From NCBI GenBank assembly GCA_038065415.1, contig JBBTRA010000004.1:26092-90091 (forward strand): DNA of 64,000 nucleotides, read 5' to 3'. The notes below the pieces were generated by a model, which did no database searches, was not told the DNA's origin, and saw nothing but the letters and a program-made list of their open reading frames with translations. A program made the translations under genes and the position numbers. How positions within the stretch are numbered: the first letter of the stretch is position 1; each line of letters begins with the position of its first letter. The stretch is from Patescibacteria group bacterium (GTDB lineage Bacteria > Patescibacteriota > Minisyncoccia > Phycocordibacterales > PALSA-1337). Positions 2,371-48,334 of the stretch are shown here, piece by piece.

Positions 2371-2739
2371 TTATTTCCAGGGCCAGAGACCTCTCATCAT
2401 ATCTTTGACGGCCGCTCCTCCCCTGCGGATGCTCGACATATTCTTCTGGCGATGAGACTTGAGCTCCCTGAGCACAGCGTCACGCATCTCGTCTATAGCA
2501 GCATAGAGGTCTTCCTTTTCGCATGCGTGGAATATATTGAGGCCAGCACCGACGATGTGTGCCTCTGCTTTGAATATGTCACCCTTGTTGTGATGGGCAG
2601 TCGTGCGAGCGAGCTCGATATCGCACTGAATAGATGTGTCATCCCCGACGAGCTTTTCTATCTTCTCCATCCTTTTCGAAACATACTCGGATATAGCGTC
2701 GGTCAGTGAGATGTTGGTAGTCTTGATATTTGTATTCAT
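2371..2739 (-). CDS. hpf: ribosome hibernation promoting factor (HPF/RaiA, sigma-54 modulation protein family)
   Basis: A 122 aa protein with 'ISLTDAISEYVSKRMEKIEKL' and the beta-alpha-beta HPF pattern. Confidence 0.8.
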   Translation of the reverse strand: MNTNIKTTNISLTDAISEYVSKRMEKIEKLVGDDTSIQCDIELARTTAHHNKGDIFKAEAHIVGAGLNIFHACEKEDLYAAIDEMRDAVLRELKSHRQKNMSSIRRGGAAVKDMMRGLWPWK

Positions 2740-2867
2740 GTGGGTATGGTTAGTCCTATTAATCGATCAGCTACCGTACGCTCTCATTATATCAGCTCTT
2801 CGCCCCCAGAGAAACTAGTATGCATATTTTGATTTCGTGTACCCGATGTGGTACATTATCCCCACAT

Positions 2868-2940
2868 TCCGCGGTAGCTCAGCCGGTAGAGCGCCTCGCT
2901 GTTAACGAGGATGTCCCAGGTTCGATCCCTGGCCGCGGAG
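2868..2940 (+). tRNA. tRNA-Asn (anticodon GTT)
   Basis: The 7-bp acceptor stem TCCGCGG/CCGCGGA pairs correctly. The D-arm is GCTCAGCCGGTAGAGC and the anticodon loop CTGTTAA has U33 and A37. The T-arm is CCAGGTTCGATCCCTGG, the discriminator is G, and the total is 73 nt without an encoded CCA. Confidence 0.85.
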
Positions 2941-2979
2941 CAGATAGCATTGCCTCAGATTCCTTGGAATACTATACCC

Positions 2980-3309
2980 ATGACACATTTTGTTCCAAAA
3001 ATTGTAACTGCTGTATTCTTGAGTCTTCTCATTAATGCCCCATTTGCCATCGGGGAGTTCCTGACAAGGGAGATCACGGGTCCGCGTGCGTATTTTCCGT
3101 TCAAGCTCATGGTGGGGCTCTGGCTCCACATGGCACTTCTAGTGTTTCTATTGATTCCAATAATCCAAACTTCTAGAGACGGCAGCGCGAGCAAGAAACC
3201 AATCCTCCTCAGCATACGGTTACTCATTCTCGGAATCTTGGCATGGGCCTGGATAACACTAATTATTGATCAGTGGCCCTGTTTTTTCCTTGGGGGTAGT
3301 GGTTGCTAA
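2980..3309 (+). CDS. hypothetical membrane protein
   Basis: Hydrophobic ORF with 3-4 predicted TM segments. The start was moved to the internal Met at 2980 to avoid overlap with the tRNA. Confidence 0.3.
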   Translation: MTHFVPKIVTAVFLSLLINAPFAIGEFLTREITGPRAYFPFKLMVGLWLHMALLVFLLIPIIQTSRDGSASKKPILLSIRLLILGILAWAWITLIIDQWPCFFLGGSGC

Positions 3310-3399
3310 ATATTGACGCAAACAAATTCATATTGTAATCTGAGTATTAGAATTTGTTGTAGCTTCACTGAAATCTCAACCGATCAAACCTTTGAAAGT

Positions 3400-3945
3400 A
3401 TGAAGACTCCCGTCTTAATTGAACTTGCCATTCAGACCGTTCTCGTCGCATTTGCCGGAGAACTCCGCACAGGACCCTTTTCACTCCCCAGTGCGACACA
3501 TTCGCTACGGGTTGGACTCTCACTCATGAAGTGGGGGTATGAGATCGATGTGTGTTTGGGTGGATTCTTCCATGATGTCGACGAGGACACCTCGCTTAAT
3601 CGAGAATTCATTCGAAATAAATTTGGGGACAGAGCACATTTTTTGATGCTAGCCTGCACCCTTGACCCGACACTTGAAGAAAAGGGTCCCGGGGAAGATG
3701 AGCTGTATCAAAGAGTGATCAAGTATGCAGAAGCGGGAGATCTTGATCCCCTTCGCATTAAATGTGCTGATTCATTTGATAACCTGGGAACAAATGCTTG
3801 TCTAAAGCCGGAGTGGCAAGAACATGCTTTTAAGAAAGGGCTCAACTGGCACGTAGCTGCACTTCGCTTTTTTCCTACAGAGGCTTTAACAAGAGAGCTT
3901 GGTTACCTGCTCCAATGGGAAGCCACAAGGTTAGCGTCAAAATAA
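3400..3945 (+). CDS. HD-domain metal-dependent phosphohydrolase
   Basis: Metal-ligand motifs are visible at H...'FFHDVDED'...'CADSFDNL'. The start was chosen at 'MKTPVLIEL', but the ORF stays open back to 3313. Confidence 0.5.
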   Translation: MKTPVLIELAIQTVLVAFAGELRTGPFSLPSATHSLRVGLSLMKWGYEIDVCLGGFFHDVDEDTSLNREFIRNKFGDRAHFLMLACTLDPTLEEKGPGEDELYQRVIKYAEAGDLDPLRIKCADSFDNLGTNACLKPEWQEHAFKKGLNWHVAALRFFPTEALTRELGYLLQWEATRLASK

Positions 3946-5097: not shown

Positions 5098-5529
5098 CTA
5101 CTGGTGATAGAACCATTCCAAGGAAGCTCGAACTTCCCCTGGACTAGCCTTGTGTACTGCATTCAAAAAATAAACAACATCGCCATACTTCACTGTTCCC
5201 AGCCGCCCGAATACATACCGGATCGTATGCGGCTCGCATAGTTCCCCGTCAAAATGTCTGCCAGCCAGATCAAGAAATCTTTCCACCGCAGACTCACCTT
5301 CAAGGATACACACCTCCACCTGCTTACCAGCTGAATGCCGCTTCGCAGCCTCCAAAAGCGGAGAAGCCAAGTCATCTCCATACAAAGCATCTATGTCGGC
5401 TTCGGTAAGTCGTATGATGCGTGACTCGACCAATTTCAGGTCGGAATGTGCGGCAATATAGCCTTTGATATCATTTCTGATTTCAAATGCTTCGGGTTTT
5501 ATAATGAAAAAAGTTTTTTGAATCGGCAT
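5098..5529 (-). CDS. ndk: nucleoside diphosphate kinase family protein
   Basis: 'KTFFIIKPEAF', 'ILEGESAV' and 'NAVHKAS' align to the NDK motifs, but the usual HGSDS is replaced by HKASP. The start was set at the internal Met, 1 nt overlapping the upstream stop. Confidence 0.6.
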   Translation of the reverse strand: MPIQKTFFIIKPEAFEIRNDIKGYIAAHSDLKLVESRIIRLTEADIDALYGDDLASPLLEAAKRHSAGKQVEVCILEGESAVERFLDLAGRHFDGELCEPHTIRYVFGRLGTVKYGDVVYFLNAVHKASPGEVRASLEWFYHQ

Positions 5530-6296
5530 TATTGTTTCCAAACCAACAATTTCTTCTCGACAAAAACTAGGATGCCGACACATATCACTCCCGCTACAGT
5601 TACGCTAATAAGCGAGGCATACAGCAAACCGGGACGTAATTGGTACATAGCCACAGTTATAAGCTGACCGATGCCCGTCCGAACACCGAGCCATTCGCCG
5701 ATAGTGGCGCCAATAATGCTCGCAGGAATCGCCAATCGCAATGCAGTCAAAAAACCTGGGATCGCTGACGGCAAGAATATCTTGAAGAGCATCTGTTTCT
5801 GCGTGGCATTGAATACGCGCATCACTTCCAAAATATCCTTCGAGACATTTCTGAATGAACTATCCAATCCTACCAAGATAGGAAAATAGCTGATTATCAT
5901 CGAAACAAAGACAATTGAAAACCACGACCCTTGTCCAAATGCCAATATGATCAGCGGCGCAAAACCCACTATCGGAAAGGAATTCATGGCAAAGCTAAAG
6001 GGAAAGCCTATATTCCTGACCGTCGGGAAAAATAGGAAGACAATGGACACAACAAAAGCCAGCAGTATCCCGAGTAATAATCCCCCACCAGCTCGTGCCA
6101 ATGTATACCCCAAATTAGACAGTATGACCCCTCCATCCACCACGAATGTTTTGATGATGGTATGTGGCGACGCAATGAAGAGCTCAATTGAAGTATCGTC
6201 GTTTTCGATGCGATGATAATCTACGGCATTTTCAATCAATTGCCATAAAAAGAGGAAGGCACAGATGAACAAAAAAATGGATAGGGTCTTCTTCAT
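5529..6296 (-). CDS. ABC transporter permease (NitT/TauT family)
   Basis: Six TM segments and a BPD_transp_1-like EAA region. It lies in an operon with the ATPase and the substrate-binding protein. Confidence 0.8.
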   Translation of the reverse strand: MKKTLSIFLFICAFLFLWQLIENAVDYHRIENDDTSIELFIASPHTIIKTFVVDGGVILSNLGYTLARAGGGLLLGILLAFVVSIVFLFFPTVRNIGFPFSFAMNSFPIVGFAPLIILAFGQGSWFSIVFVSMIISYFPILVGLDSSFRNVSKDILEVMRVFNATQKQMLFKIFLPSAIPGFLTALRLAIPASIIGATIGEWLGVRTGIGQLITVAMYQLRPGLLYASLISVTVAGVICVGILVFVEKKLLVWKQ

Positions 6297-18305: not shown

Positions 18306-18692
18306 ATGAAATTGATTTTAAGCTATAATCAAGACAAGATCATGCAACCCCCTAAGCCATATCGCGAAGCGCGACCATGGGGGGAGTTTATTGAGTTTAC
18401 GCGGAACACTCCCTCGACGGTCAAGATCCTTACCGTGAATGCACACGAAGCATTCAGTCTCCAGACGCACTCTAAAAGAGACGAATACTGGAGAGTTATA
18501 TCTGGTACCGGTACCATACAGGTAGCAAATCAAACCTATGCAGTGATTGCTGGTGAAAGCCATTTTATACCTCGAGGCACTCTTCACCGTGTGGAAGCTG
18601 GCGATACTACTGTCATCATCTTGGAAATATCATTTGGTGATTTTGATGAGAAAGACATAACGCGACACGATGACCGTTATGGCCGGCGTTGA
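18306..18692 (+). CDS. cupin, mannose-6-phosphate isomerase type II C-terminal-like
   Basis: 'PWGEF', 'EYWRVISGTGTIQV', 'HFIPRGTLHRVEAGD' and a C-terminal 'DEKDITRHDDRYGR' tail typical of PMI-II cupins. Confidence 0.55.
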   Translation: MKLILSYNQDKIMQPPKPYREARPWGEFIEFTRNTPSTVKILTVNAHEAFSLQTHSKRDEYWRVISGTGTIQVANQTYAVIAGESHFIPRGTLHRVEAGDTTVIILEISFGDFDEKDITRHDDRYGRR

Positions 18693-23932: not shown

Positions 23933-24418
23933 TCATCTGGTAACCGATATACTGGGGGTTAATTCACCTGTCGAGCTTGCAGTAATCCTACCCGTACTAT
24001 CACGCCATATTTCATAGCCCGTGTTGTAGTCCGTTGTGTTAGTGAAGTGTGCTCCCGGTTGTAATGGATCAAATGGAAGCGATGATACATAATCTGGAAC
24101 GAGACAGGTCGCAATATCACCAGGATCACCTGGTATGGAAGAGCTTCTGACAATGGTGGCGGTAGTAGGTATCTCACGAATCACATCCTCGCACACAAAA
24201 CTACCCTTGTGTTCAGACATATTCTGGTGTATCGCGTTCAAGAGTGTATTCACATTACTGGTACGCTGAGAGTCGCGTGCCAATTTGAATTGCCGAGACG
24301 GATTGACGGCAACCAAGACAATCGCCGCCAACACGGCGATGATGCCGATAACCACAAGAACTTCAATCAGAGTAAACCCTGTGCGTACTTTTTGCTTAAA
24401 ATAGATATGTACATGCAT
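23933..24418 (-). CDS. type IV pilin-like protein (prepilin N-terminal cleavage/methylation domain)
   Basis: 'RTGFTLIEVLVVIGIIAVLAAIV' is the class III signal, G|FTLIE. Confidence 0.6.
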   Translation of the reverse strand: MHVHIYFKQKVRTGFTLIEVLVVIGIIAVLAAIVLVAVNPSRQFKLARDSQRTSNVNTLLNAIHQNMSEHKGSFVCEDVIREIPTTATIVRSSSIPGDPGDIATCLVPDYVSSLPFDPLQPGAHFTNTTDYNTGYEIWRDSTGRITASSTGELTPSISVTR

Positions 24419-24513
24419 GAATATATAAGTCTTATAAACTGATAATGCCATAAAGCTACCAAGATCAAATGAAGTAACGATGATGACGTGTTAGATATTT
24501 CATGAACCCAGGC

Positions 24514-24633
24514 AAAACAACCCGGGAAACTGTATGTGTGTGCTGTGTGGTTATGCAGAACGGTTCCCTAAGGTGCGGTGTACAGACACTACATAACCAC
24601 ACAGCACACACATACAGTTTCCCGGGTTGTTTT
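24514..24633. repeat. perfect inverted repeat, 42-bp arms, 36-nt spacer
   Basis: Left arm 24514..24555 (aaaacaacccgggaaactgtatgtgtgtgctgtgtggttatg) is the exact reverse complement of 24592..24633. It sits in the divergent pilin/dnaB intergenic region. Confidence 0.85.
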
Positions 24634-24701
24634 CTTTTCCCCATCTTTTCCCCCTTTATCCATTTACACGCCACTTTTTGACACATGATACAATTACGGC
24701 C

Positions 24702-26087
24702 ATGAATACAGCATCCCCCTACTTCAAGACAAAAGATCTCAAGATACCTCCACAAAATATAGAGGCAGAAAAGGCCCTTCTAGGCTCCATACTTATCCGC
24801 GGAGAGGCTATGCACGACATCGTAGATATCGTCGGAGAGGCATCCTTCTACTCCAACCAGCACAAAAACATCTGGGCTGCCATCTTCGAGCTTCACAGCA
24901 AGACGACTCCCATAGATCTGTTATCTCTCTCGGCTCGCCTCAAAGATAAGAACCTCCTCGAACAGTCCGGTGGCATGACATATCTGACCGAACTCATTAA
25001 TGCGGTCCCATCATCCACCAATGCCGACCACTACGCTGAGATCGTGCAAAAAAAGCACATCATGCGTGAACTTCTGCGTGCGGCGGAACATATCACTGGT
25101 CTCGGATATGATGAGGAGGGCGAACTCCACGACATCCTCGAGAAAGCTGAGAAGGCACTCTATGCCGTGACCAACAAAACTGGTTCACACAAGTTCGTAG
25201 CCCTCAAAGATACTCTTCATGAAGCATGGGAGCGTATCGATCGTCTGCACAGCACCAAGGATGAGCTCCGCGGAGTGCCTACTGGTTTCGTGGAGATCGA
25301 CAACAAGCTCGCAGGCTTTCAAAAATCAGACCTCATCATTCTTGCCGCGCGTCCTTCTATGGGTAAGACTTCCCTCGCACTCGATATCGCGCGCAAGTCT
25401 GCCGTCAACCACAAAGTACCCGTAGCAATATTCTCGCTCGAAATGAGCTCTCAGCAGCTCGTAGATCGTATGCTCGCCGCAGAGTCGCAGGTCGACTCTT
25501 GGAAGATTCGTACGGGTCATTTCGAGAAGCTCTCGGCCCAACATGACTTCAAGGCTATCAACGAGGCCATGGGTCGCCTCTCGGAAGCCCCAATCTATAT
25601 CGATGACCAGCCTGGCAACAATATCCTCAAAATGCGTGCCACTGCTCGCCGTCTCAAGAATGAGAAAGGTCTCGGCCTCATCATCGTCGACTATCTCCAG
25701 CTCATGGTACCGACGCAGGCCCGTGGTTCTGACAACCTCGTCCAACAGGTCACCGAGATCTCGCGATCCCTCAAGAACCTCGCCCGTGAACTCGAGGTAC
25801 CCGTCCTTGCCCTCTCCCAGCTCTCTCGTGAAGTCGAGAAACGCGGTGGTAAACCTCGCCTCTCCGATCTCCGTGACTCGGGTTCCATCGAGCAGGATGC
25901 TGATGTGGTTATGTTCATCCATCGTGAATCAGATCAGGATCAGGGTGGTCGCCGTGAAGAGGCCGAGATCCTCATCGAAAAGCACCGCAACGGTCCTACC
26001 GGTATCGCCAAACTCTTCTTCGACAGCAAGAAGACAACGTTCATGTCGGTCGACAAGGCTGATTTTGGTGGATTTGAGAAGATGTAA
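24702..26087 (+). CDS. dnaB: replicative DNA helicase DnaB
   Basis: DnaB N-domain 'IPPQNIEAEKALLGSIL', Walker A 'ARPSMGKTS', Walker B 'LIIVDYLQLM' and 'SQLSR'. The ATG at 24702 is preferred over the TTG at 24627, which lies inside the inverted repeat. Confidence 0.9.
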   Translation: MNTASPYFKTKDLKIPPQNIEAEKALLGSILIRGEAMHDIVDIVGEASFYSNQHKNIWAAIFELHSKTTPIDLLSLSARLKDKNLLEQSGGMTYLTELINAVPSSTNADHYAEIVQKKHIMRELLRAAEHITGLGYDEEGELHDILEKAEKALYAVTNKTGSHKFVALKDTLHEAWERIDRLHSTKDELRGVPTGFVEIDNKLAGFQKSDLIILAARPSMGKTSLALDIARKSAVNHKVPVAIFSLEMSSQQLVDRMLAAESQVDSWKIRTGHFEKLSAQHDFKAINEAMGRLSEAPIYIDDQPGNNILKMRATARRLKNEKGLGLIIVDYLQLMVPTQARGSDNLVQQVTEISRSLKNLARELEVPVLALSQLSREVEKRGGKPRLSDLRDSGSIEQDADVVMFIHRESDQDQGGRREEAEILIEKHRNGPTGIAKLFFDSKKTTFMSVDKADFGGFEKM

Positions 26088-26090
26088 TCT

Positions 26091-26708
26091 ATGGACTCAC
26101 TCCATCGCCTCGAAGAACTCTTCGCAAAATTTCCTGGAATTGGCCCTCGCCAAGCCAAGCGTTTTGTATACTACCTCCTCAACAAGTCCCCTTCATATAT
26201 TCGTGAGTTCACGCAACTCGTGGAAGAGGTCAGGAAATCCACCAGCGAATGTACCCAGTGTCACCGCATCTCATTTGGAAGTGCGAGCTCTCTCTGTTCT
26301 ACGTGCTCAGACAAAAATCGTGACGGTTCCCTGCTCATGATCGTGGCGCGCGACTCCGACTTTGAAACTATTGAAAAAAGTGGCGCATATCGTGGTCTCT
26401 ACTTCATTCTGGGAGGAACTATTCCCATCCTCGACAAAGAACCCGACAAGAGAATTCGGCTGCAAGGACTTCTCGAACATGTATCGAGGGCCATTTCAGG
26501 AAATCAGCCTCTCAAAGAAATCATCCTTTCCCTGAATGCGACTCCCGAAGGCGAACATACAGCAACTATCGCCAAAGAAGCCGTTGGTAAGATACTCAAG
26601 GACTCACCAGTCAAAATATCCCTTCTTGGTCGTGGTCTCTCGACGGGCGCTGAGCTCGAGTATGTGGATGGTGAGACCATCAAGAACGCCTTGCTCAACA
26701 GAAACTAA
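26091..26708 (+). CDS. recR: recombination protein RecR
   Basis: HhH 'FPGIGPRQAKRFVYYLL', a C4 zinc finger (CTQCH...CSTC) and a Toprim domain ending in 'DGET'. Confidence 0.85.
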   Translation: MDSLHRLEELFAKFPGIGPRQAKRFVYYLLNKSPSYIREFTQLVEEVRKSTSECTQCHRISFGSASSLCSTCSDKNRDGSLLMIVARDSDFETIEKSGAYRGLYFILGGTIPILDKEPDKRIRLQGLLEHVSRAISGNQPLKEIILSLNATPEGEHTATIAKEAVGKILKDSPVKISLLGRGLSTGAELEYVDGETIKNALLNRN

Positions 26709-26739
26709 AAAACCACCTTCATCAGGTGGTTTTTATTTG
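26705..26739. terminator. bidirectional intrinsic terminator
   Basis: aaaaaa-ccacct-tcatc-aggtgg-ttttt between convergent recR and rplU. Confidence 0.6.
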
Positions 26740-48266: not shown

Positions 48267-48294
48267 CAAAAACCCCCTATTTCAGGGGGTTTTT
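48267..48294. terminator. bidirectional intrinsic terminator
   Basis: aaaaa-accccct-atttc-agggggt-ttttt. Confidence 0.6.
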
Positions 48295-48334
48295 GTAACA
48301 TTTCTATATTTGGAGGCTCGCACCCGTCTAAGCC

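Follow-up and report, generated by a model that had tools for sequence, protein, structure and literature searches.

A palindrome with concertedly evolving arms upstream of dnaB in a lineage of Paceibacteria

What kind of element is a long, perfect inverted repeat between two bacterial genes, and does the perfection of its arms tell us its age? The question is raised by a palindrome of 120 nt in a 64,000-nt stretch of a genome from the Patescibacteria group (the whole stretch analyzed is called the window below), where it separates the divergent genes of a type IV pilin-like protein and of the replicative helicase DnaB. A preliminary description of the window read the perfection as a mark of recent origin or of selection, and named a MITE or foldback element, a pair of transposon ends, a structured RNA and a replication or partition site as candidates. 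We compared the palindrome with the same site in related genomes, and with other long hairpins found around dnaB in these relatives.

The palindrome and its surroundings

The features of the window that the argument needs are the following.

23933–24418, minus strand: type IV pilin-like gene with an N-terminal methylation (N_methyl) motif; orthologues in relatives
24440–24468, minus strand: putative pilin promoter, from by-eye comparison (−35 TTGATC at 24463–24468, −10 TTATCA at 24440–24445)
24514–24555, no strand: left arm, 42 nt, perfect; sequence AAAACAACCCGGGAAACTGTATGTGTGTGCTGTGTGGTTATG
24556–24591, no strand: central spacer, 36 nt, weakly structured
24592–24633, no strand: right arm, 42 nt, exact reverse complement of the left arm
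24635–24654, plus strand: conserved block TTTTCCCCA-TC-TTTTCCCCC, from sequence comparison; putative DnaA-binding site
24686–24694, plus strand: extended −10 of dnaB, TGATACAAT, in a promoter predicted by sequence comparison, 7 nt before the ATG
24702–26087, plus strand: dnaB, replicative helicase, ATG at 24702

Re-reading of the sequence bears out the geometry first described: the arms at 24514–24633 are complementary at 42/42 positions around a spacer of 36 nt, and the CCCGGG site and the TG-rich tract attributed to them are both seen. Pairing reaches 45 nt with one mismatch, which leaves an unpaired center of 30 nt; this lone mismatch, in the outer 3 nt on each side of the spacer, is C·A on the plus strand and G·U on the minus strand. 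None of the 42 arm pairs is a wobble pair. Chance arm matches were absent from all 100 shuffles, and the RNA fold of the region reaches −84.8 kcal/mol (z = −11.9, 200 shuffles). No other inverted repeat in the window comes close to it in length, the runners-up reaching 27 nt (70%) and 20 nt (90%). Gene calls agree with the divergent neighbors proposed earlier and place the repeat 68 nt from the dnaB ATG; the pilin-like gene probably starts at ATG 24418, its ORF being open up to 24451, and a D-Ala-D-Ala carboxypeptidase gene and recR lie beyond the two neighbors. By its DnaB homologues, the genome belongs to Patescibacteria of the Paceibacteria/Parcubacteria type.

The outermost part of the palindrome is similar to the intrinsic terminators of the window. 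The outer 13 nt of the left arm, AAAACAACCCGGG, are like the left half of the A-tract/GC bidirectional terminator hairpins, and the right arm has the 3' end CCCGGGTTGTTTT followed by a T-rich tail (U-rich as plus-strand RNA). The same outer style recurs as AAAAACCACCT..AGGTGGTTTTT at 26708–26734, and again at 48267–48295 and other sites, a resemblance which suggests that the palindrome may be divided into a terminator-like outer part and an insertion. The outer clamp and the T-rich tail are thus both present, but the loop, longer than 8 nt, keeps the terminator scan from calling the hairpin, and with divergent neighbors there is no gene end here. The example at 26708–26734 is a compact bidirectional terminator, AAAAACCACCT-tcatc-AGGTGGTTTTT, in the 24-nt gap between the convergent recR and rplU genes.

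The shape of terminal inverted repeats, the variable presence among relatives (L002 is without the palindrome) and the IS110-like transposase genes of related contigs would all suit a classical MITE, or a transposon reduced by deletion to its two joined ends. The sequence of the arms speaks otherwise. With up to three mismatches tolerated, AAAACAACCCGGGAAACTGTATGTGTGTGCTGTGTGGTTATG has one occurrence per strand in the 64 kb; the check for multiple copies proposed in the preliminary description returns only the two arms themselves there. Exact searches with 22–23-mers of the arms gave no match in JGI metagenome contigs, IMG/VR or 182 related loci, and blastn with the 151-nt element found nothing in phage or plasmid collections. 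The flanks contain no direct repeat at the borders of the palindrome, as had already been noted, and hence no target-site duplication; no transposase gene is adjacent, and species that share the site have completely different arms. The MITE or transposon-end reading is largely refuted, and we regard it as highly improbable. The IS110-family-like genes, recognized by weak Transposase_20 matches, lie a few kb from dnaB in two relatives (L002 7229–7386; L168 15047–16453). IS110 elements target palindromic repeats; a link between these genes and the hairpins was not established.

Integron attC sites were considered as well and rejected. These carry conserved outer R boxes (RYYYAAC / GTTRRRY) and extrahelical bases, and end cassettes near an integrase. 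The palindrome ends in AAAACAA / TTGTTTT, has no extrahelical bases and is surrounded by housekeeping genes.

Comparison with relatives points to promoters on both sides of the palindrome. An extended −10 of the form TGNTANAAT sits 7–9 nt ahead of the dnaB ATG in all close relatives, and the pilin −35 is kept among relatives as TTGATAC. If these conserved elements are correctly taken as promoters, the palindrome is located outside both mRNAs: the dnaB mRNA would be leaderless and without the palindrome, which would be upstream of the pilin promoter as well, in an apparently untranscribed stretch between the two promoters. A consensus scan of 24300–24800 returned no canonical promoter. We rejected a minus-strand small ORF that runs from GGGGAAAAGATG into the hairpin: its ATG is not conserved (CTG or GTG in L083, L166 and L175), and the length and sequence of the peptide vary between relatives. 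The spacer ahead of the pilin −35 (window 24440–24513) is full of short repeated motifs (GATGAAGAT / TGAAGAAA / GATAAAG), which are also found upstream of the hairpin site in L003, L083, L092, L166 and L175. They may be binding sites of a regulator, and do not fit the DnaA-trio pattern.

The conserved block on the dnaB side has the consensus T(C/A)TCCACA-NN-TTTTCCCC in relatives and is DnaA-box-like, with a perfect TTATCCACA in L084; a second box-like TTATCCATT is found at 24656–24664. The block occurs about 45–60 nt upstream of TGNTANAAT in the window, L001–L005, L083–L085, L092, L166, L168 and L175, which suggests that a leaderless dnaB may be under the control of DnaA. In the clade of the window the palindrome is 0–2 nt away from the block (1 nt in the window itself). 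A palindrome that abuts a DnaA-box-like motif upstream of dnaB in several lineages, in a group where hairpin elements cluster at dnaB/recR junctions in other genera, might be a replication-related cis site, such as an origin, a site of helicase loading, or a cruciform through which DnaA binding or dnaB expression is modulated. Yet many relatives keep the box and the promoter without any hairpin, and the clustering is inflated by the sampling of all related loci around dnaB. GC skew keeps its sign in the vicinity, and the cumulative curve runs essentially monotonically through the window without turning near 24.5 kb. DnaA boxes with up to one mismatch number 7 in the window against 13.9 expected, with none in 24400–24750, and the 16-bp parS palindrome TGTTNCACGTGAAACA is absent, the sole site with three mismatches (15328) being at chance level. 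The replication or partition site proposed in the preliminary description therefore finds no counterpart in skew, DnaA-box enrichment or parS, and we consider it very unlikely.

Concerted evolution of the arms at the same site in relatives

We took the orthologous pilin–dnaB spacers from independent assemblies, arranged here by the amino-acid identity of DnaB to that of the window.

L001, L163, L164: DnaB 96% identical; palindromes with perfect stems of 38, 32 and 35 bp
L002: DnaB 96% identical; a short hairpin, formed by the outer portion of the left arm alone
L166: DnaB 89% identical; palindrome with a perfect stem of 27 bp
L175: DnaB 89% identical; plain 15-bp hairpin
L003, L083, L084, L092, L168, L174: DnaB 81–91% identical; without hairpin

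The comparison of presence and absence suggested in the preliminary description thus shows palindromes in L001, L163, L164 and L166 and their absence from other relatives. Because related palindromes occupy the same position in four independently assembled genomes (JGI, NCBI, ENA), the palindrome is not an assembly artefact. The carriers are separate species rather than strains, since their dnaB genes are only 79–85% identical in nucleotide sequence. A single copy lacking conservation had been named earlier as the mark of an unexplained palindrome rather than a mobile element; the copy is indeed single, but its position is conserved in four sister species. More distant relatives (L004, L018 and L086) have hairpins of 119, 121 and 134 nt at the site upstream of dnaB. 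The dnaB-upstream hairpin is also the exact point where several contigs from other samples stop or continue into unrelated DNA (L165 at about 200–220; L167, L176 and L177 at their starts), which reflects either assembly failure at the inverted repeat or real rearrangement.

The two arms are alike within each species and divergent between species. When the outer 45 nt of the left arm are compared with the reverse-complemented right arm, identity within a species is 80% in L166, 89% in L001 and 96–98% in the others, and the paired stems are perfect over 27–42 bp within each species. By contrast, the same arm is only 24–53% identical between species in ungapped comparison, with the exception of the closest pair, L163 and L164, where it is 84–89% identical (also ungapped). 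This pattern shows that the arms evolve in concert, and their perfection is due to concerted evolution, not to youth or to selection on each base pair. The earlier reading of perfection as recent origin or selection is thus overturned: the palindrome predates species whose dnaB genes differ by 15–20%, and its arms have changed together. The absence of wobble among the 42 pairs makes copying at the DNA level an easier explanation than selection on an RNA stem.

The center of the palindrome has been inverted at least once, in one species: the spacer of L163 matches that of L164 at 30/37 positions when inverted and at 21/36 in direct orientation, and the orientation in L001 agrees with L164. The observation comes from one pair of species and from assemblies, in which spacers can be mis-oriented where the arms are longer than k. 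A flipped spacer next to a surface-structure (pilin) gene recalls an inverton, that is, a phase-variation switch in which a recombinase flips a promoter in the spacer. The spacer here, however, is just 30–36 nt long, is not conserved in sequence and has no promoter-like site, each gene has a conserved putative promoter of its own outside the repeat, and no invertase or recombinase gene is found within several kb; such a switch is barely conceivable.

A selected, functional RNA hairpin deserves more attention. The palindrome could encode an sRNA, form an RNase III substrate served by a weak upstream promoter, or act as a terminator or insulator against pervasive transcription. Its fold is extremely stable, the hairpin is followed by a U-rich tail on the plus strand, its sole mismatch is G·U on the minus strand, and a −10-like hexamer, TATGAT, is conserved just upstream of the palindrome in L001, L002, L163 and L164; plain terminators and three-way-junction hairpins, moreover, interchange at one junction in relatives (L108 and L109, see below). 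A wobble-free stem of 42 pairs is nevertheless unlike the outcome of selection at the RNA level, the spacer flips between species, and several close relatives do without the element. The promoter scan is empty and there is no Rfam family: at the gathering threshold of Rfam 15 the sole match in the window is a tRNA at 2868, and in E-value mode the palindrome is matched only by miRNA-precursor models, far below their thresholds. The structured RNA of the preliminary description is thus retained as a candidate, although the palindrome appears to be upstream of both predicted promoters and its only Rfam matches are these non-specific, sub-threshold miRNA hairpins. We find a selected RNA unlikely.

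Hairpins with a conserved three-way junction in other Paceibacteria

A scan for long perfect hairpins in 162 dnaB-centered loci yielded two classes. Hairpins of the first class have stems of 18–28 bp and loops of 3–15 nt, and many of them are flanked by A- and T-tracts; those with such tracts are likely bidirectional terminators. The second class comprises hairpins of about 100–134 nt with long, site-unique stems, most of which (L009 and L174 are exceptions) enclose a conserved center that folds as a three-way junction. In this core, the P2 helix has a CGAC(U)G loop and a conserved G(N)A/GA internal loop, and P3 has a CAGCAG loop on 7 bp, which a bulged A separates from a further 3–4 bp. With a covariance model of the core, R1, we detect 18 copies spread over 11 loci, as many as three of them within 12.6 kb; canonical members score 27–84 bits, and there is one weak match of 21 bits. 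Element lengths are mostly 117–125 nt within a full range of about 102–136 nt, and the lengths of stem and loop trade off. The copies are found in the following contexts.

Upstream of dnaB: L004, L018, L086
Between dnaB and recR: L007, L033, L098
recR/rplU junction: L086, L098, L108
rpmA/rplI and fmt/rplI junctions: L007, L008, L042
Upstream of mraZ: L042
Upstream of rpmA: L004
After cysS: L085

Their coordinates within the respective loci are as follows.

L004: 4691–4813, 9782–9900
L007: 11394–11510, about 5391–5510, 3338–3414
L008: 4892–5000, 5034–5144
L018: 9816–9936
L033: 12645–12747
L042: about 5690–5812, 18320–18495
L085: 3396–3523
L086: 3791–3924, 6724–6845
L098: about 5405–5523, 6153–6268
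L108: 5947–6060

The proposed structure is strongly favored by covariation. In the R1 alignment 85% of cells pair, against 62% in shuffles, and the covariation score of 0.589 against 0.199 is reached by none of 500 shuffles; the alignment was fitted to the model and so favors the structure, yet the margin is large. When the alignment is slid as a control, the paired fraction drops to 35–50%. All ten pairs of P3 have changed on both sides. The counts of G·U against A·C pairs (27 against 9) do not decide the strand of function, since the entire excess comes from three junction columns. Upstream of dnaB the orientation of the core varies among lineages; in the four tandem-gene contexts and in cysS it follows the coding strand. 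A stand-alone sRNA gene was rejected as the identity of these elements, since no −10 element is conserved upstream of them. Five IMG/VR matches to a degenerate pattern of the core were not confirmed by the model and are chance matches. No family in Rfam 15 matches the elements, and full-text searches of the literature on Patescibacteria found no description of such hairpins; the family appears to be undescribed.

Individual copies give an impression of how the elements vary. The two copies of L004 share 51/53 core positions, with both differences compensatory, and their outer arms are unrelated. In L115 an element is placed in frame within cysS (gene at 2453–3916, element at about 3449–3566, core at 3478–3553), where it adds some 25–29 residues that are missing from the CysS homologues compared (14 in one comparison, 2 in another); the cysS site of L042 is without a hairpin. 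L108 has a three-way-junction element where L109, which is 88% identical, has a plain terminator hairpin. This last case would fit an origin of the stem arms from a pre-existing hairpin, whereas the alternative, that they were copied from the flank, is favored by L002, which keeps only the outer left arm.

Several further observations were made at the same junctions. The recR/rplU junction, which holds the compact terminator in the window, has three-way-junction elements instead in L086, L098 and L108. In L175 a gene for a 23S rRNA-intervening-sequence protein (2878–3328; PF05635, E = 6e-38) is inserted between dnaB and recR and flanked by imperfect inverted repeats of about 32–39 bp, at the junction that is occupied by three-way-junction elements in L007, L033 and L098. 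Another palindrome is present at the dnaB–recR junction of L174 (2157–2267). The dnaB gene of the Kaiserbacteria MAG L033 (9989–12622) encodes 877 aa including an intein with a LAGLIDADG endonuclease domain (Pfam Intein_splicing, LAGLIDADG_3).

The palindrome of the window shares with this family its site upstream of dnaB, its size of about 120 nt and its long, perfect, site-specific stem. We rejected it as a member, as R1 does not find the defining core: with cmsearch filters off, the best score on 24400–24750 is 2.4–3.8 bits, which is no match, and the palindromes of L001, L163, L164 and L166 have no score. The palindrome might still be a decayed element of this kind, its conserved core lost as the perfect stem extended toward the center. 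In L004, L018 and L086 this dnaB-upstream site holds canonical elements; most elements of the family have a total length of 117–125 nt, within which stem and loop trade off; and the clade of the window keeps a (C/T)TTAG(A/G)(A/G)AAC motif like the CUAGGAA junction of canonical cores. This motif resemblance is short, though, and could be due to chance, and R1 stays silent on all five palindromes. Decay from such an element is an idea that we find somewhat doubtful, if well short of far-fetched.

Origin, significance and comparison with known systems

Among the readings of the palindrome, the one that we prefer, and to which we give about even chances, is a single-copy, vertically inherited foldback palindrome with a terminator-like outer part and concerted arms, neutral or selfish in nature and possibly an insulator. 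A foldback palindrome of about 120 bp would have been passed on vertically in one clade of Paceibacteria, seated on, or grown from, a terminator-like hairpin between divergent promoters. Its outer 13 bp would retain the form of a bidirectional terminator hairpin (A-tract, GC clamp, T-tract), and the inner 94 bp or so would represent a palindromic expansion or insertion. The arms are most likely homogenized by intramolecular recombination or template switching between them, whereby a change in one arm would be copied into the other, and the same arm-to-arm process would occasionally flip the spacer in the center. We regard the element as most probably neutral or selfish; if it has an activity, this would lie in its structure, with a hairpin or cruciform serving as a terminator-like barrier between the two promoters. 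Of the candidates first listed, a foldback element comes closest to the evidence; the MITE or transposon end pair and the replication or partition site do not. Two observations weigh against this foldback reading: a palindrome of such length should be easily lost by deletion and is yet kept in 5/6 close lineages, which suggests some selection rather than pure neutrality, and several relatives (L003, L083, L084, L092, L168 and L174) have no hairpin at the site.

A broader proposal would join the palindrome to the hairpins of other genera. Paceibacteria may carry undescribed hairpins of about 120 nt, made of a covarying three-way-junction core on a site-unique stem, with arms that are homogenized by conversion and a center that flips. 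Such hairpins would sit at terminator positions and in promoter spacers, and even in frame in an essential gene; the palindrome of the window would be a core-less descendant, and local hairpins would either give rise to the arms or be joined to them, the arms not being carried along by the element. We put this forward tentatively, as a possibility with the balance against it. If true, it would mean a mode of spread or maintenance unlike that of known MITE, REP or RPE elements.

These findings imply that a perfect long inverted repeat in a bacterium need not be recent or mobile, and can be old, with arms that homogenize themselves. This bears on how such repeats are read in metagenome-assembled genomes, where contigs break or are scrambled at them (L165, L167, L176 and L177). 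The palindrome apparently points to a wider, undescribed set of hairpin elements in Patescibacteria, and of the two results we find the three-way-junction family the more interesting: it covaries strongly, has no match in Rfam and includes a copy in frame within cysS. Were this family transcribed, it could serve as a 3'-end or processing signal specific to the lineage; were it mobile, it would be a new type of small selfish element, in bacteria whose genomes are among the smallest. The DnaA-box-like motif before a putatively leaderless dnaB is a testable lead on replication control in organisms not yet grown alone.

The palindrome has likenesses to several known systems. With bidirectional intrinsic terminators it shares the outer 13 bp and the T-rich tail, in the A-tract/GC/T-tract form, and it differs from the terminators of the window by its stem (42 bp vs 10–13 bp), its loop (36 nt vs 4–5 nt) and the lack of a gene end. 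REP/REPIN, ERIC and Correia elements are likewise intergenic, hairpin-forming and about 100–150 nt in length; links to termination, mRNA stability and supercoiling have been described for them. Those elements are multi-copy, with conserved arms and often a RAYT, whereas the arms in the window are unique to site and species and present in a single copy in 64 kb; a REP/REPIN identity was rejected because the arms are unique and differ between species at the same site. Rickettsia palindromic elements (RPE), of about 100–150 bp and found in frame in the genes of reduced genomes, are similar to the three-way-junction element in the cysS gene of L115. RPE copies share their full-length sequence, whereas the three-way-junction family conserves only its central core and the copy in the window is without that core. 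The intervening sequences (IVS) found in 23S rRNA, some of them accompanied by a PF05635 gene, are also sporadic extended stem-loops of about 100 nt that replace a hairpin loop; they reside inside rRNA and are excised by RNase III, whereas the hairpins described here are hosted by intergenic junctions. With arms unique to its site and a single copy, the repeat of the window belongs to none of the REP, Correia, RPE or IVS types.

TIGR-Tas stem-loops also occur in Patescibacteria and combine palindromic stems that vary with an enclosed loop that carries small conserved motifs; TIGR units form arrays beside a tas gene (Nop-domain), with two unpaired spacers of 8–12 nt between box C/D motifs (PMC12045711). 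Set against this description by eye, the elements studied here are isolated, have base-paired hairpin loops, and show no evident box C/D pattern or Nop-domain ORF.

The closest parallel to the behavior of the arms comes from plastids and large palindromes. Small inversions associated with hairpins are found in plastid non-coding DNA, an example reportedly being that of Kelchner and Wendel in 1996, and arm-to-arm gene conversion operates in the plastid inverted repeat and in the palindromes of Y chromosomes. Those cases come from organelles and eukaryotes, whereas the window has a bacterial element of 120 bp with arms of 42 bp, for which a similar mechanism is only presumed. In both, however, the arms are identical within a lineage and divergent between lineages, the loop flips, and no dedicated recombinase is needed.
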